A stretch of 64,000 bases of DNA from Krischvirus LF73P4: the sequence record OZ035795.1; one strand, written 5' to 3'. Under the pieces are notes generated by a model, which saw only the letters and a list, made by a program, of their open reading frames with translations, made no database searches and was not told the DNA's origin. The position numbers and the translations under genes are program-made. The stretch's first letter is position 1; each line of letters starts with the position of its first letter. This document shows, in pieces, positions 2,382-44,905 of the stretch.

Positions 2382-4382
2382 ATGACTCTATTATCACCGG
2401 GTTTCGAAACGAAAGAAACTACTCTCTCCACTACCATTGTGCAATCTGCGACTGGTCGCGCGGCGCTGGTAGGTAAATTTCAATGGGGTCCAGCTTTCCA
2501 GATTGTTCAAGTAACTAATGAAGTTGAATTAGTTAATAAATTTGGTCAGCCGGATAATAACACCGCAGACTATTTCATGAGCGGGGCTAACTTCCTCCAG
2601 TATGGCAATGACCTGCGTGTTGTTCGTGTACTCAATAAAGAAAAAGCAAAAAACGCAACCGCACTGGCTGGTAACGTCGAGTTTGAAATCACAAACGAAG
2701 GTTCAAACTATGAAGTAGGCGATACCATCAAGATTAAACATAACCGTCAAGATATTGAAACGGCTGGTAAAGTAACTAAAGTTGATGGTGATGGTAAAGT
2801 TAAGGGCGTATTTATCCCAACTGGTAAAATTATCGCTCACGCTAAAGCAATCGGTGTATATCCAGAACTTGATGGCGGTTGGACGGCAGAGTTCACTTCT
2901 TCGTCAGGTAACGGTAGTGCGGCGCTGTCAGTAACTAAAATTGTTACTGATTCCGGTCTTCTGTTAACGGATCTGGAAACTTCCCGCGCCAATATCACAA
3001 ATCAAACTTTCTTGACTAAACTCCAGAAGTATGATATGCCAGCGGTAAGCGCGATCTATGCTGGTGAGATTGGCAACTCGCTGGAAGTGGAAATTCTGGC
3101 ACGTAGTGCGTTTAAGAACACTGCACCGGATCTGACCATGTATCCTTATGGTGGCGAGCGCACCGCAGCACGCAACCTGATTCCATATGCACCGCAGAAT
3201 GATAATCAATATGCATTTATTGTTCGTCGCGATGGTGTTGTGGTAGAATCCTATGTACTGTCTACTCTGAAAGGGGATAAAGACGTATACGGCAATTCTA
3301 TCTACATGGACGACTTCTTTGCTCGTGGTTCTAGCCAGTACATCTATGCAACCGCTCAAGGGTGGGTAGATGGTTTCAGTGGTATTATCTCTCTTGCTGG
3401 TGGTGTTTCTGCTAACGAAGCAACGACTGCTGGTGTTGGTGCTGATCCGTTCATCGGTGCGATGATGCAAGGTTGGGATCTGTTTGCTGAACGAGAATCT
3501 ATTCACGTAAACCTGTTGATCGCTGGTGCATGTGCTGGCGAAGGCGATGCGTTCTCTACCGTACAGAAACATGCTGTTTCCATCGGTGATGAGCGTCAGG
3601 ATTGCTTAGTAATGGTTTCTCCGCCGCGTAGCACTGTTGTTAATATTCCGGTGACTACCGCAATTGATAACCTGATTGCATGGCGCGAAGGTTCAGGAAA
3701 CTATAATGAAAACAACATGAACATTAATACCACTTACGCGGTTATTGATGGTAACTACAAATATCAGTATGACAAATACAACGACGTAAACCGTTGGGTT
3801 CCTTTGGCTGCTGATATTGCTGGTTTATGTGCTCGAACTGATGTGGTATCTCAACCGTGGATGAGTCCGGCAGGTTATAACCGTGGTCAGATCATGAACG
3901 TGGTTAAACTGGCAATTGAGCCTCGCAAGTCGCACCGTGATCGTCTGTATCAGGCCGCAATTAACCCGGTGATCGGTGCTGGTGGTGAAGGGTTTATCCT
4001 GATGGGTGATAAAACCGCTACGACTGTTCCTAGCCCGTTTGACCGCATTAACGTTCGTCGTCTGTTTAACATGCTGAAAAAGAATATCGGCGATTCAAGC
4101 AAATACAAACTGTTTGAAAACAACGATAACTTTACTCGCGCTTCCTTCCGTATGGAGGTTTCGCAATATCTCAGCACGATTCGCTCTCTTGGTGGCATTT
4201 ATGACTTCCGAGTACAATGCGACACCACGAACAACACGCCTGATGTAATTGATCGTAATGAATTTGTTGCTAGCATGTTCATCAAACCGGCAAAATCGAT
4301 CAACTATATCATGCTCAATTTCACTGCTGTTGCAACTGGTGCTGATTTTGACGAAATTATCGGTCCAGCTAACCAGGCATAA
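2382..4382 (+). CDS. 18: tail sheath protein
   Basis: 666 aa; follows terminase as in T4; TATAAATA late promoter upstream. Confidence 0.9.
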   Translation: MTLLSPGFETKETTLSTTIVQSATGRAALVGKFQWGPAFQIVQVTNEVELVNKFGQPDNNTADYFMSGANFLQYGNDLRVVRVLNKEKAKNATALAGNVEFEITNEGSNYEVGDTIKIKHNRQDIETAGKVTKVDGDGKVKGVFIPTGKIIAHAKAIGVYPELDGGWTAEFTSSSGNGSAALSVTKIVTDSGLLLTDLETSRANITNQTFLTKLQKYDMPAVSAIYAGEIGNSLEVEILARSAFKNTAPDLTMYPYGGERTAARNLIPYAPQNDNQYAFIVRRDGVVVESYVLSTLKGDKDVYGNSIYMDDFFARGSSQYIYATAQGWVDGFSGIISLAGGVSANEATTAGVGADPFIGAMMQGWDLFAERESIHVNLLIAGACAGEGDAFSTVQKHAVSIGDERQDCLVMVSPPRSTVVNIPVTTAIDNLIAWREGSGNYNENNMNINTTYAVIDGNYKYQYDKYNDVNRWVPLAADIAGLCARTDVVSQPWMSPAGYNRGQIMNVVKLAIEPRKSHRDRLYQAAINPVIGAGGEGFILMGDKTATTVPSPFDRINVRRLFNMLKKNIGDSSKYKLFENNDNFTRASFRMEVSQYLSTIRSLGGIYDFRVQCDTTNNTPDVIDRNEFVASMFIKPAKSINYIMLNFTAVATGADFDEIIGPANQA

Positions 4383-42320: not shown

Positions 42321-42917
42321 TTATTTGGTAGTACCGTCAATAAAATGTTTACGGCACACAGAAACATATTTATCCTCTGCACCAACTTCGATTTGAGCAC
42401 CATCGCGAATAACATTACCCTCTTTATCTACACGAAGGACCATTGTTGCTTTCTTGCCACAATGACAAATACCCTTCATTTCGACCAGTTTATCAGCAAA
42501 TGCCATTAATGCCGCAGATCCTTCAAATAGATTGCCCTGAAAGTCAGTGCGAAGGCCATAGCACAGTACAGGGATATTAGCATCATCAACAAGCGCACAC
42601 AAGCCTAAAACATGCTCTTTAGTCATAAATTGGGCTTCATCTACAAATACTGCATCTGGACGCCATCGATCCGGTCTACGCTTACCTAACGATTCACGAT
42701 AAACCAAATCGAAAAGATCATCCGATTTAGTGAAGGTGATCGCTGGGGCACTTAGGCCAATTCGGGAAACGACTTCACTTTCTGAATCTCGATTATCAAT
42801 CGCTGGCTTAAGAATTAATACTCGCATATCACGTTCGGTATAGTTATAAGCACTTTGTAACAGAGAAGTTGATTTGCCAGCGTTCATAGATGCATAGTAG
42901 AAATATAATTGCGCCAT
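42321..42917 (-). CDS. tk: thymidine kinase
   Basis: P-loop MNAGKST; FVDEAQF; CHCGKKA; collinear with recalled T4 Tk. Confidence 0.93.
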   Translation of the reverse strand: MAQLYFYYASMNAGKSTSLLQSAYNYTERDMRVLILKPAIDNRDSESEVVSRIGLSAPAITFTKSDDLFDLVYRESLGKRRPDRWRPDAVFVDEAQFMTKEHVLGLCALVDDANIPVLCYGLRTDFQGNLFEGSAALMAFADKLVEMKGICHCGKKATMVLRVDKEGNVIRDGAQIEVGAEDKYVSVCRKHFIDGTTK

Positions 42918-43210
42918 TAATTAATCTCCAAAAATCCAACAAGGCCTAAACCGATATAAGTCCAGATACCAATGAAAAAGATGTTAATGCTCATGGCAAG
43001 GATAAACCCTTTCAGAGTTTTGGGATACCCGACCCAATATTCCCGACCATCTTCTAACCGGATCAACTTATTGCCTTGCGAGTCCATATCAACTACAACA
43101 TGTTTATTTCGAGATTGCAATAGATATTGTTTTACAATCTCTACACCCGCCATAATAACAATAACGAAAATAAAAGTCCACACAACAAGATTAATGATAG
43201 TCTCAAGCAT
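42917..43210 (-). CDS. small membrane protein
   Basis: Two hydrophobic segments. Confidence 0.45.
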   Translation of the reverse strand: MLETIINLVVWTFIFVIVIMAGVEIVKQYLLQSRNKHVVVDMDSQGNKLIRLEDGREYWVGYPKTLKGFILAMSINIFFIGIWTYIGLGLVGFLEIN

Positions 43211-43457
43211 TTTCTATCACCTCCACCCAATCAGGTGTTTCCTGAAAGACTCCTTCACCTTCATGATGGTCGCAACCTTTATTGCTACAGTACATCCACC
43301 AATCCCACATTCCCCACGGTAAACGCTGCATATCGTCGTTACAGCAAGTGAAGATGATAGGCCAACCACATCTACCACATCGGCAGTTTTCCTTCATGTG
43401 TGCGCTATTAGGCTTCATATTCAACCACCACAATATTGATATCCGGCGTAAAATCAT
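43203..43457 (-). CDS. Cys/Trp-rich zinc-finger-like protein
   Basis: CRCGRCGW..CC..C..C..H pattern. Confidence 0.4.
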   Translation of the reverse strand: MILRRISILWWLNMKPNSAHMKENCRCGRCGWPIIFTCCNDDMQRLPWGMWDWWMYCSNKGCDHHEGEGVFQETPDWVEVIENA

Positions 43458-43863
43458 TAATAATTTCTTCTACGCATTCCCACTCAAGACCGCCAATCCC
43501 ACAACCAATTTTAGGAATATAGAACGGCTTAACAGTACCTTCAAATGCGGAGTTAAGTTGTTCGAATCCACGGATGATAGCGGAATATTCAGCATTTGGT
43601 CCTGGACGGAATTGCGTATAAAGATTAATACCCATCCAGTTATAACCATTAACGGTATGATGCCAAACATTAAACTCGCCTAGCTTACTCGCCGTTCCTC
43701 TCGGTGTCTTTTTGTCAGTAGCCAATGCTTGCGGGAACTCTTTCGCGATCTTCGCAGCAATACCAGCACCCATAGTATGAAAACAATTACAACCATGAAT
43801 TAAATGACCGTTTCCTTGTTTAAACAGGGCGATGAGATCGCCCTTTACAGTATCAATAATCAT
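43408..43863 (-). CDS. macro-domain protein (ADP-ribose binding/hydrolase)
   Basis: GCNCFHTMGAGIAAKI and IGCGIGGL resemble macro-domain glycine-rich loops. Confidence 0.6.
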   Translation of the reverse strand: MIIDTVKGDLIALFKQGNGHLIHGCNCFHTMGAGIAAKIAKEFPQALATDKKTPRGTASKLGEFNVWHHTVNGYNWMGINLYTQFRPGPNAEYSAIIRGFEQLNSAFEGTVKPFYIPKIGCGIGGLEWECVEEIINDFTPDINIVVVEYEA

Positions 43864-43878
43864 AATATAAACCTCTCA

Positions 43879-44238
43879 TTAGTCACGGGAAGACAACCCA
43901 GCCATAAAACGGCTTAACAGTGTGTCGCGATAAGCAAAGCATAATTGCTTATCAGGGGCAGTATCACAAAGGTTGCGTTTTGTTTTAGCAAAGCTGGCAA
44001 TACTCAGATCCCACGCTCGATTTTTTCGTTTTTCATCTCGACCTTGTTTGTATGCTTCATCAAGTTCGAGCGCGATAAAATCACTACACATGTTATCATC
44101 ATCACAGAAAGTTTTAATGATCTTTTTGTTGATCTCAAATCCTTTGTATTCGAACTTTGGATAAGGGCGCTCATTACTAGCAAGCGCACCAGCCGAGAAC
44201 ATCATAGCAATCATAGCAATTATTGTCAACTTTTTCAT
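43879..44238 (-). CDS. secreted Cys-containing protein
   Basis: Signal-peptide-like N-terminus. Confidence 0.45.
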   Translation of the reverse strand: MKKLTIIAMIAMMFSAGALASNERPYPKFEYKGFEINKKIIKTFCDDDNMCSDFIALELDEAYKQGRDEKRKNRAWDLSIASFAKTKRNLCDTAPDKQLCFAYRDTLLSRFMAGLSSRD

Positions 44239-44245
44239 ATATTCC

Positions 44246-44836
44246 TCAATAGCGTTTAGTCTTAAGAATGCCTTTACTCTTTAGATGGTTAGCCTTTTTT
44301 AGTACATCATCAGCATAACCTAACCCGGCTTTATAGTTCCATCCAGCATTGTAAGAAGCTAGCGCGAGTCGGATATTACCGTTTCGAACATCCAGCCAGT
44401 ATGCTAACTCATCCATCGCGTAGAATGCAGAAACCTCGCGATTCATGATAAAGTTGATAGTCTGGCGATCACTCATTTTAACACCGCGCTTTGCATTTTT
44501 CGCTTTCACCGTTTTAAGGTAATTTTGAAATAATCCATAAGCATGATGATTTTTCTTTGGTGCTAAGTTTGCACCCGCGCTTGATTCTTGCCATGCGATA
44601 CCCGCCAGGATGTGACCTAAACCCTTTCCGTTATAGCGAATATTCGGATGGTCCTTTTTCAACTTACCGCTTTTCTCGAATTGCTCGCCGTATTGATAGG
44701 CGAAATGTAAATTATCTAGTTGGTGTGCTGTAAAGTTGTCTATCGGCGCTTTTTTGATCGGTGCGCTAGTCGATGCGTGTGTAGCACCAACGGCTAGTGA
44801 CAGACTCAATACTATCGCTTTTAGAACTTTTAACAT
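44246..44836 (-). CDS. secreted lytic transglycosylase (SLT domain)
   Basis: Signal peptide; GIAWQESS catalytic-Glu motif; YNAG. Confidence 0.65.
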   Translation of the reverse strand: MLKVLKAIVLSLSLAVGATHASTSAPIKKAPIDNFTAHQLDNLHFAYQYGEQFEKSGKLKKDHPNIRYNGKGLGHILAGIAWQESSAGANLAPKKNHHAYGLFQNYLKTVKAKNAKRGVKMSDRQTINFIMNREVSAFYAMDELAYWLDVRNGNIRLALASYNAGWNYKAGLGYADDVLKKANHLKSKGILKTKRY

Positions 44837-44869: not shown

Positions 44870-44905
44870 CATAATATAGCCCTATCACCAGAAAGTCAAG
44901 CATTA
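44870..44905 (-). promoter_or_regulatory. possible sigma70-like promoter
   Basis: Minus strand TTGACT..TATATT upstream of the transglycosylase gene. Confidence 0.3.

Follow-up and report, generated by a model that had tools for sequence, protein, structure and literature searches.

In 2025, the Tk.4 protein of phage T4 was named AdfM (anti-DarT factor macrodomain). Its gene was the single hit of a DarTG2 transposon screen, a clean knockout was sensitized to DarTG2, and T4 can grow on plain K-12 without tk.4, the gene being important only when DarTG2 is present (bioRxiv 10.1101/2025.11.20.689424). This evidence comes from a preprint and is genetic only (bioRxiv 10.1101/2025.11.20.689424); in vitro activity is on record only for distant relatives of the Krischvirus protein described below (22%–28% identity). 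One of these, SCO6735, cleaves thymidine-linked ADP-ribose in vitro and rescues cells from DarT; its Gln85 is essential, and its DNA activity has been linked to a longer mobile loop and to Val25 (PMC9411070). Another, the chimallivirus protein PhiKZ gp104 (also AdfM), de-ADP-ribosylates DarT2-modified DNA in vitro, an activity that is lowered by mutation of N23 (PMC13309987). A further T4 protein, AdfN, is specific for guanosine-linked ADP-ribose (the DarT1 product) and does not counter DarTG2 (PMC11825919, PMC11481870).

A Krischvirus Orthologue of T4 Tk.4

We analyzed a 64,000-nucleotide stretch (hereafter the window) of Krischvirus LF73P4 (OZ035795.1), an RB49/JSE-like T4-type coliphage. 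A preliminary description, made from the letters alone, had placed a macro-domain ORF and an overlapping Cys/Trp-rich ORF near the thymidine kinase gene. Both are present on the minus strand (43408-43863 and, as a mechanical ORF, 43203-43457), with tk two genes downstream. From upstream to downstream, the features of the block are:

44871..44899, minus strand: sigma-70-like promoter match (TTGACT-17-TATTAT) from a promoter scan, upstream of vs.1
43879..44238, minus strand: vs (valyl-tRNA synthetase modifier; phrog_1256, E 1.8e-33), immediately upstream of tk.4
43408..43863, minus strand: tk.4 (adfM orthologue); the product, 151 aa long, is a single-domain macrodomain protein and belongs to the ALC1-like class (TARG1/DarG/SCO6735)
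43203..43418, minus strand: gene for a 71-aa Cys/Trp-rich protein, Pfam PF23895 (Phage_zn_bind; 115.8 bits), phrog_2306 (unknown function)
42917..43210, minus strand: gene for a 97-aa hydrophobic protein (phrog_16027, E 9e-63), between the zinc-binding gene and tk
42321..42917, minus strand: tk, thymidine kinase (Pfam TK, 175.8 bits)

The product of tk.4 aligns with T4 Tk.4 over its full length (residues 1–150 on 1–152; 43% identity, 66% positives, E 2e-45). The order regB-vs.1-vs-tk.4-small ORFs-tk is kept in the window as in T4-type relatives, and the tk.4 slot between vs and tk is common to T4, RB32, JSE, Cronus, Miro, JS09, and KM16. By sequence and by position, then, T4 Tk.4 (AdfM) has its Krischvirus orthologue in the ORF at 43408-43863. 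Among the neighboring genes, the vs product has 100% amino-acid identity to JSE vs, and the 97-aa protein, the start of whose ORF overlaps the stop of the zinc-binding gene by 8 nt, is identical to JSE EpJSE_00090. Same-strand genes of the block are packed with gaps of 1–15 nt or overlaps. Judged by its match to the consensus, the sequence at 44871..44899 is a candidate start of a leftward transcript running through vs.1, vs, tk.4, the zinc-binding gene, the 97-aa ORF, and tk; the PF23895 gene and tk.4 would be co-transcribed, like every gene of this tightly packed block.

Comparison with phage JSE gives dN/dS ratios of 0.18 for the macro-domain ORF and 0.09 for the Cys/Trp-rich ORF; both are under purifying selection. 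Because of this selection, and of conservation across hundreds to thousands of phage genomes (Tk.4 is found in 2742 phage records and PF23895 in 785), neither ORF is a chance reading frame. Homologues of Tk.4 span many phage groups, including Felixounavirus-size, Pseudomonas, Vibrio, and Rhodococcus phages. Between Krischviruses that are nearly identical elsewhere, tk.4 diverges unusually in its central part (dS 0.75, vs ≤0.19). At a dN/dS of 0.18, selection on this imported allele is purifying rather than diversifying.

Most existing records label Krischvirus tk.4 as “phosphatase” or “hypothetical protein”; RefSeq uses “phosphatase” and JGI “O-acetyl-ADP-ribose deacetylase.”

Fold, Profiles, and Active Site

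The Pfam Macro profile (PF01661) matches Tk.4 over all of its positions (1–118 of 118) at 28.3 bits (gathering score 22; E 1.9e-6). Searches of NCBIfam and PADLOC with Tk.4 each return a single match, antitoxin_DarG (NF048014, E 2e-14) and DarG (E 2e-15), respectively. The NF048014 equivalog score of 53.4 bits lies below the curated cutoff of 250, and Tk.4 spans only positions 2–144 of the 338-position DarG model. An AlphaFold (AF2) model of Tk.4 (pLDDT 96, pTM 0.90) has the three-layer alpha/beta/alpha macro fold, and Foldseek retrieves 134 PDB matches for it at E ≤ 0.001, the best-ranked of which are macrodomains with TM scores of up to 0.77. The top matches are TARG1 (E 1e-9), Mtb and Taq DarG (DarG, E 3e-8), Poa1p, T. 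africanus DarTG, BT1257, and SCO6735. A Tk.4 profile run against the PDB recovers much the same set: BT1257 (8e-16), TARG1 (5e-15), SCO6735 (2e-14), and DarG (9e-12). The key residues are:

43786-43788, minus strand: N26, the conserved ADP-ribose-binding Asn
G32-A33-G34: the Gly-rich loop
43612-43614, minus strand: Q84, aligned with the catalytic Lys position (DarG K80, TARG1 K84)
I119-G120-C121-G122-I123-G124-G125: the second phosphate loop

Each of N26, G32/G34, Q84, and I119-G120-x-G122-x-x-G125 is either invariant or conserved to at least 90% among 66 Tk.4 homologues, and the ADP-ribose-binding motifs are intact. Together with the profile match and the fold, these residues bear out the macro-domain assignment of the preliminary description. 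In the alignments, N26 pairs with N23 of PhiKZ AdfM, and Q84 pairs with SCO6735 Gln85 (chain residue 105) and TARG1 K84; G124 stands opposite TARG1 D125, so that an Asp125 equivalent is absent. HMMER alignments with SCO6735 and BT1257 leave a gap of 5–6 residues in Tk.4 opposite the mobile loop and set Gly24 opposite SCO6735 Val25. By these alignments, the T-even AdfM family is of the Gln type, like SCO6735, and DarG and PhiKZ AdfM are of the Lys type.

Poa1p, an ADP-ribose-1''-phosphate (Appr-1''-p) phosphatase, and TARG1/OARD1, an O-acetyl-ADP-ribose (OAADPr) deacylase, are among the sequence and fold matches. They raise the question of whether Tk.4 might process such metabolites as a phosphatase or deacetylase, as the RefSeq and JGI labels would have it. 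These labels, however, are carried over from a generic A1pp motif, and the best curated profiles are those of DarG. The DarTG2-specific genetic phenotype of the T4 orthologue likewise speaks against metabolite processing, and we know of no source of Appr-1''-p or OAADPr in T4-type infection. We therefore regard a metabolite-processing role as very unlikely.

Proposed Function of Tk.4

The reading that we favor, with a probability of roughly 0.7, is that Krischvirus Tk.4 is an orphan antitoxin-like macrodomain directed against host DarTG2, and that the neighboring PF23895 gene is an independent accessory. Host DarT2 would modify thymidine bases of single-stranded phage DNA with ADP-ribose; the free-standing Tk.4 macrodomain would, most likely, hydrolyze the ADP-ribose off these thymidines, and with its removal replication could go on in DarTG2-carrying cells. 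The DarTG2 sensitivity of the T4 tk.4 knockout makes this freeing of phage-DNA thymidines from ADP-ribose the most likely activity. The substrate of the window protein is presumed to be that of its relatives. Since Gln84 and Gly124 take the places of TARG1 Lys84 and Asp125, the mechanism is probably Gln-dependent and water-mediated, as proposed for SCO6735. Two features of the window protein speak against this function: the catalytic Lys of DarG and PhiKZ AdfM is missing, and so are the longer mobile loop and the Val25 to which the DNA activity of SCO6735 has been linked. One option raised in the preliminary description, reversal of host defensive ADP-ribosylation, is what the T4 orthologue does in genetic terms, as seen in the DarTG2 sensitivity of the tk.4 (adfM) knockout (bioRxiv 10.1101/2025.11.20.689424).

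The other option raised there was that the macrodomain regulates modifications made by the phage's own ADP-ribosyltransferases, erasing ADP-ribose or RNAylation set on host proteins by ModB and Alt. JSE, a close relative, has modB in the part of its genome that corresponds to the window, and SCO6735 and TARG1 are known to de-modify proteins too (PMC9411070). Against such self-regulation, tk.4 is dispensable for T4 on plain K-12 and important only with DarTG2, and homologues of Tk.4 are spread over many groups of phages in which T4-type ADP-ribosyltransferases are not known. The chemistry is also unfavorable. T4-type Alt, ModA, and ModB modify arginine, and Arg-ADP-ribose is cleaved by ARH/DraG-type enzymes; the macrodomains known to us cleave Glu/Asp esters, O-acetyl-ADP-ribose, and phosphate-linked and thymine-linked ADP-ribose, never Arg-ADP-ribose. 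With the arginine linkage outside known macrodomain chemistry, self-regulation seems highly improbable, and this part of the earlier interpretation was not retained.

A third possibility is that Tk.4 counters some other immunity built on ADP-ribose, such as RNA ADP-ribosylation or ADPR-derived signals, instead of or besides DarT2. The spread of Tk.4 over 2742 phage records and many hosts may be wider than DarTG2 alone would account for, and the divergence of the central part of tk.4 would fit such a role. However, CmdTAC, which ADP-ribosylates mRNA, still strongly defends against wild-type T4, itself a tk.4 carrier; the dN/dS of tk.4 is that of purifying rather than diversifying selection; and there is no positive evidence of another substrate. 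We consider a target other than DarT2 improbable.

The Predicted Zinc-Binding Gene and Its Junction with tk.4

The mechanical ORF of the PF23895 gene encodes 84 aa, the length given in the preliminary description. Its upstream ATG, at 43457, lacks conservation (JSE has ATA there); conserved instead is the ATG at 43418, which follows GGTGG-N6. The gene thus likely starts at 43418 and encodes 71 aa rather than 84; counted from this start, its overlap with the tk.4 stop shrinks from 50 nt to 11 nt. The PF23895 match (gathering score 27) covers positions 2–68 of 69, and in 78 PF23895 sequences (71-aa numbering) C14, C17, C49, and H52 are invariant and C26 and C44 reach at least 90% conservation, as part of a larger conserved set (C14 C17 W19 P20 C26 N27 D39 W41 Y43 C44 S45 N46 K47 C49 H52 G54) that includes a W/D/W/Y motif. 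This Cys/His ligand set predicts that the protein binds zinc. Its AF2 model is confident (pLDDT 92.9); sequence and fold searches of the PDB found no relative, nor any similarity to the DarG/DarTG macro-domain entries (5m3i, 5m31, 7omu). Orthologues include RB49ORF089c, RB32ORF111c, and JS09_071, an alignment-based homologue search gathered 205 proteins, and we found no literature on PF23895, RB32ORF111c, or RB49ORF089c. PF23895 is hence a widespread family of small phage proteins with predicted zinc binding, a predicted fold that has no PDB match, and no functional assignment.

Alignment with JSE places a further feature at the contact of the two genes:

43408..43418, minus strand: overlap of the tk.4 stop and the PF23895 start, the junction of a 194-bp deletion

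In 58 of 58 GenBank Krischviruses, a 64-aa ORF of another family, PF23903 (Phage_zn_bind_2), sits between tk.4 and the PF23895 gene, and all 58 records match the window in two pieces, with 855 nt where the window has 661 nt. The last two residues of Tk.4 have been rewritten at the junction (EA in place of DK). The contact between tk.4 and the PF23895 gene in the window is thus the product of a recent, lineage-specific 194-bp deletion: the two genes abut because the intervening ORF was removed. The divergent tk.4 allele is not tied to this deletion, since a 99%-identical allele still precedes the PF23903 ORF. Nor is the tk.4-tk interval a general zinc-binding cluster; most small ORFs there have no Cys motifs.

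The preliminary description had named the overlapping small protein as a possible partner of the macrodomain. Such a partner could be, for example, a DNA- or DarT-binding module that replaces the C-terminal DarT-binding domain of DarG, and several observations fit a two-component unit of this kind. Tk.4 covers just positions 2–144 of the 338-position DarG model. The two genes lie on the same strand with an 11-nt overlap at the tk.4 stop, and the Shine-Dalgarno sequence of the second falls within the 3' end of the first. Where T4-like loci have both genes, PF23895 always follows tk.4 on its strand (24/24 and 7/7 loci), with the two in direct contact in at least six independent IMG/VR contigs; from this arrangement, a facultative functional link may exist. 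But T4 has no PF23895 gene, and its AdfM protects against DarTG2 all the same. PF23895 is found within 5 kb at only seven of 80 Tk.4 loci and is absent from the other 73. Conversely, 18 of 42 PF23895 loci lack Tk.4 over the same distance, and in one natural relative, seen at two loci, an in-frame stop makes the PF23895 gene a nonsense pseudogene beside an intact tk.4. Depending on the genus, 0–3 unrelated ORFs separate the two genes; the adjacency seen here was made by a recent deletion, and overlap is the rule for every gene pair of the block. The 71-aa protein also lacks sequence or fold similarity to any PDB entry, those of DarG/DarTG macro-domains included. A two-component unit is in our view a poor prospect, and the PF23895 gene would seem to be an independent small accessory gene of the variable tk.4-tk interval, not a required partner. 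The preliminary interpretation as a whole therefore survives in its macro domain and its counter-defense option, and not in self-regulation or partnership.

The 18 PF23895 loci without Tk.4 had no recurring neighbors, except for a NinX-like gene beside PF23895 in three. Because neighbors do not recur outside T4-like phages, the PF23895 neighborhood gives no functional hint. The PF23895 protein may be a counter-defense or host-takeover factor, in T4-like phages perhaps recruited beside adfM to help, facultatively, against some variants of DarT2, for instance by binding DarT2 or ssDNA directly; this is a speculative and rather unlikely reading.

Comparison with Known Systems

An anti-DarT macrodomain role is already known for the T4-type family, and the Krischvirus case is an ordinary one. 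The result mainly improves annotation and opens no long-standing question: Krischvirus tk.4 can now be read as a predicted AdfM-type anti-DarTG2 DNA ADP-ribosylglycohydrolase. The T4 and window proteins, from a Tequatrovirus and a Krischvirus, respectively, are of the same length class (155 vs 151 aa), have Pfam scores in a similar range, and share the NLYTQF motif, in which Gln occupies the position of the catalytic Lys. Downstream of tk.4 the phages differ, T4 having Tk.3 (DUF7202) and Tk.2/Tk.1 (DUF7438) and, unlike the window, no PF23895.

The DarG macrodomain of DarTG2 (PDB 5m3i, 5m31/5m3e, 7omu) has the same ALC1-like macro fold as Tk.4 (TM ~0.77), and the chemistry expected of both, predicted in the case of Tk.4, is removal of ADP-ribose from thymidine in ssDNA. 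In contrast to DarG, the 151-aa window protein has no C-terminal DarT-binding domain, its Gln84 replaces the catalytic Lys80, and its gene adjoins vs and the PF23895 gene rather than a darT toxin gene. SCO6735 (PDB 5e3b) and BT1257 (2fg1), the best PDB sequence matches (~22%–25% identity), share with Tk.4 the Gln at the TARG1 K84/DarG K80 position and the lack of an Asp125 equivalent. Tk.4 is missing the ~5-residue-longer mobile loop and the Val25 of SCO6735 (Gly24 in the window), and SCO6735 serves bacterial housekeeping rather than phage counter-defense.

PhiKZ AdfM resembles Tk.4 in being a phage-encoded single macrodomain with the conserved Asn (N23 vs N26), but the two are only 28% identical, and PhiKZ AdfM is of the Lys type (FPTKDNW), as is DarG, and is imported into the phage nucleus. 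Phage proteins called AdfM would thus span two mechanistic subclasses. The same logic, in which orphan antitoxin-like or inhibitor proteins of T-even and Vibrio phages act against DarTG, is followed by AdfN (T4 gp61.2, NADAR) and by AdfA/AdfB (PMC11825919, PMC11481870), although their folds are unrelated to the macro fold of Tk.4.

Gene Order at the Locus

The locus lies in a minus-strand region of a Krischvirus genome (RB49/JSE-like, Straboviridae), and 58 phage records match a 2.6-kb query around it at 90%–96% nucleotide identity. The genes from vs.1 to tk share one strand, with gaps of 1–15 nt or overlaps, and stop/start overlaps are the rule across the block. Comparison with the close relative JSE and the T4 annotation identifies the order as the conserved T4-type regB-vs.1-vs-tk.4-(small ORFs)-tk. 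The macro ORF and its Cys/Trp-rich neighbor thus lie near tk, as the preliminary description stated, with tk beyond a 97-aa ORF on the same strand.

Genes of the vs.1-to-tk block
44246-44836, minus strand, vs.1
43879-44238, minus strand, vs
43408-43863, minus strand, macro ORF (tk.4), 151 aa
43203-43457 as listed, minus strand, Cys/Trp-rich ORF (PF23895)
42917-43210, minus strand, 97-aa hydrophobic ORF
42321-42917, minus strand, tk

The 97-aa ORF (phrog_16027; no Pfam match), between the zinc-binding gene and tk, has hydrophobic N- and C-terminal segments and matches its JSE counterpart at 100% identity; no T4 equivalent is annotated at the same position. Of the sigma-70-like matches found here, the strongest (TTGACA-17-TATGAT, extended -10 TG, 11/12; 44201-44229, minus strand) sits just within the vs ORF at its 5' end, and this candidate promoter could produce a transcript that starts within vs and reads into tk.4.

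Family and Probable Function of the Macro ORF

The proposed macro domain is borne out: the Pfam Macro profile is covered in full at 28.3 bits (gathering score 22), and the ORF aligns with T4 Tk.4 over its full length (43% identity, E 2e-45). Relatives occur in 2,742 phage records (tblastn). An AlphaFold2 model built from an alignment of 60 sequences is very confident (pLDDT 96, pTM 0.90), and its best PDB neighbor is TARG1 (E 1e-9, TM 0.76), with the M. tuberculosis and T. aquaticus DarG macrodomains, Poa1p, the T. africanus DarTG fusion, BT1257, and SCO6735 also among the best. The model thus places the protein in the ALC1-like macrodomain class. The Tk.4 family profile finds BT1257 (8e-16), TARG1 (5e-15), SCO6735 (2e-14), and DarG (9e-12). 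DarG, the antitoxin of the DNA-modifying toxin DarT, is the only match in NCBIfam (E 2e-14) and in PADLOC (2e-15), restricted to model positions 2–144 of 338, the macro part alone, and its 53 bits fall far under the equivalog cutoff of 250 bits. Since the ORF lacks the DarT-binding C-terminal domain of DarG and has no darT neighbor, it is a DarG-like, "orphan antitoxin-like" protein. The "phosphatase" and "OAADPr deacetylase" labels carried by the family are generic transfers.

The gene belongs to a known, widely annotated family (Tk.4/AdfM) whose counter-defence role was assigned recently. Earlier work found that T4 without adfA and adfN stays resistant to DarTG2 and predicted a further factor (PMC11825919). 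In the T4 transposon screen of a 2025 preprint, run on a DarTG2 host, tk.4 was the single depleted gene, and a clean knockout sensitised T4 to DarTG2, whence the name adfM (10.1101/2025.11.20.689424). PhiKZ AdfM not only strips DarT2-made ADP-ribose off a TNTC oligonucleotide but also rescues cells from the toxin (PMC13309987); SCO6735 cleaves thymidine-linked ADP-ribose (PMC9411070). Because the window protein is an orthologue of Tk.4/AdfM, its most likely role is to clear ADP-ribose from thymidines in single-stranded phage DNA, although we infer both substrate and mechanism. The suggestion that it reverses host defensive ADP-ribosylation holds genetically for the T4 orthologue and would extend to the window protein by orthology.

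It had also been suggested that the protein regulates the phage's own modifications, which would mean erasing ModB and Alt marks. These marks are arginine-linked, and macrodomains are not known to cleave the arginine-linked ADP-ribose bond. Given this linkage, and the dispensability of T4 tk.4 unless DarTG2 is present (10.1101/2025.11.20.689424), such a role is unlikely. The protein is likewise unlikely to reverse the mRNA ADP-ribosylation carried out by CmdT, since CmdTAC still defends against wild-type T4.

The Putative Zinc-Binding Gene and Its Adjacency to tk.4

The Cys/Trp-rich ORF clearly belongs both to PF23895 (115.8 bits), named "Phage zinc binding domain", and to PHROG 2306, catalogued as function unknown. 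The overlapping metal-binding-like protein described earlier thus stands as to family and overlap, but its length does not: the 84-aa start, ATG 43457, is ATA in JSE, whereas ATG 43418, preceded by GGTGG-N6, is conserved, giving a 71-aa product (MKPNSAH...) with an 11-nt overlap with the tk.4 stop. C14, C17, D39, W41, Y43, N46, K47, C49, H52, and G54 are invariant in 78 homologues, and W19, P20, C26, N27, C44, S45, and G56 nearly so. The family profile had no match in PDB, and we found no literature mention of the family. Two database loci (L046 and L047, 4860-5534) encode a 224-aa fusion protein that begins with a PF23895 domain (48.8 bits) and continues for ~150 C-terminal aa with no Pfam match; the fusion could offer a clue to what the family does. 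The gene also contains a 53-aa ORF in another frame (43217-43378, minus strand). The database entry P0004 joins both frames into one chimeric protein through a frameshift; frameshift artefacts thus occur among the public gene calls at this locus.

In 58 of 58 GenBank Krischviruses, a 64-aa CxxC...CxxC ORF (PF23903, Phage_zn_bind_2) separates tk.4 from PF23895. The window lacks exactly this ORF through a 194-bp deletion, which brings together the sequences around the start codons of two consecutive ORFs (TATGA...TATGA) and leaves Tk.4 ending in EA instead of DK.

Deletion junction
43408-43418, minus strand, junction in the window; JSE counterpart (L001) 3622-3813

In a metagenomic read set, the PF23903 ORF still follows a tk.4 allele (P0005) 99% identical to that of the window, so the deletion is recent and lineage-specific.

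The proposed partnership with the Cys-rich protein finds no support in wider comparison. Tk.4 alone accounts for DarTG2 resistance in T4, which has no PF23895 gene; its tk.4-tk interval holds Tk.3 (DUF7202) and Tk.2/Tk.1 (DUF7438). Tk.4 occurs in 2,742 phage records versus 785 for PF23895, which lies within 5 kb in only 7 of the best 80 Tk.4 loci in IMG/VR. Conversely, tk.4 is upstream on the same strand in 24 of 42 IMG/VR PF23895 loci, most on ~100–180-kb contigs of T4-like size and a few on shorter fragments. No Tk.4 was found within 5 kb in the other 18, which share no recurrent neighbor except an adjoining NinX-like gene in three. Where both genes occur, zero to three unrelated small ORFs separate them, varying by genus. 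Moreover, in two Logan contigs from a close relative, codon 14 of PF23895 is an in-frame TGA (MKKPNTAHMKENC*CVRCGW...), in a stretch left uncalled by the gene caller, beside intact tk.4, PF23903 ORF, and tk.

Nonsense PF23895 alleles, Krischvirus relative
L051 ~3640-3848, Logan SRR25667332
L052 ~1771-1979, Logan SRR25667309

This evidence argues against an obligatory partnership. A facultative link is kept alive by the invariable position of PF23895 downstream of tk.4 in T4-like contigs and by its directly abutting tk.4 in several independent lineages. Vertical inheritance of a block with conserved gene order suffices, however, to explain both patterns, and the pairing in the window appears to be a by-product of synteny and local deletion.

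A Divergent tk.4 Allele

Between the window and JSE, tk, the 97-aa ORF, vs, and vs.1 are 98%–100% identical (dS 0–0.10), whereas tk.4 from about codon 46 on is only ~75% identical (dS 0.75, dN/dS 0.18); five flanking genes have dS of 0–0.19. The divergent stretch (~43410-43730, codons ~46–151) covers the 3' two-thirds of the gene and looks like a recombination patch. Its dS against near-identical flanks, with the low dN/dS, suggests that the allele was imported and is under purifying selection. In GenBank, protein identity reaches only ~84%, while metagenomic assemblies hold alleles 99%, 93%, and 91% identical.

Comparison with Known Macrodomains

H23, G24, N26, C27, G34, A36, D50, N80, Y82, P117, I119, G120, and G122 are invariant in 66 homologues of the macro ORF, and conservation is at least 90% at G32, T83, Q84, G125, and W128. 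In the alignments, the counterpart of N26 in PhiKZ AdfM is N23, mutation of which reduces de-ADP-ribosylation (PMC13309987), and that of G124 in TARG1 is D125. Q84 aligns with K84 of TARG1, K80 of DarG, and Gln85 of SCO6735, which is essential there and for which a water-mediated mechanism was proposed (PMC9411070). Because Q84 occupies the Lys position and the NLYTQF motif is shared with T4 Tk.4, the T-even Tk.4 family is of the Gln type, in contrast to the Lys type of PhiKZ AdfM (FPTKDNW) and DarG. SCO6735 differs from the window protein in having a longer mobile loop and Val25.
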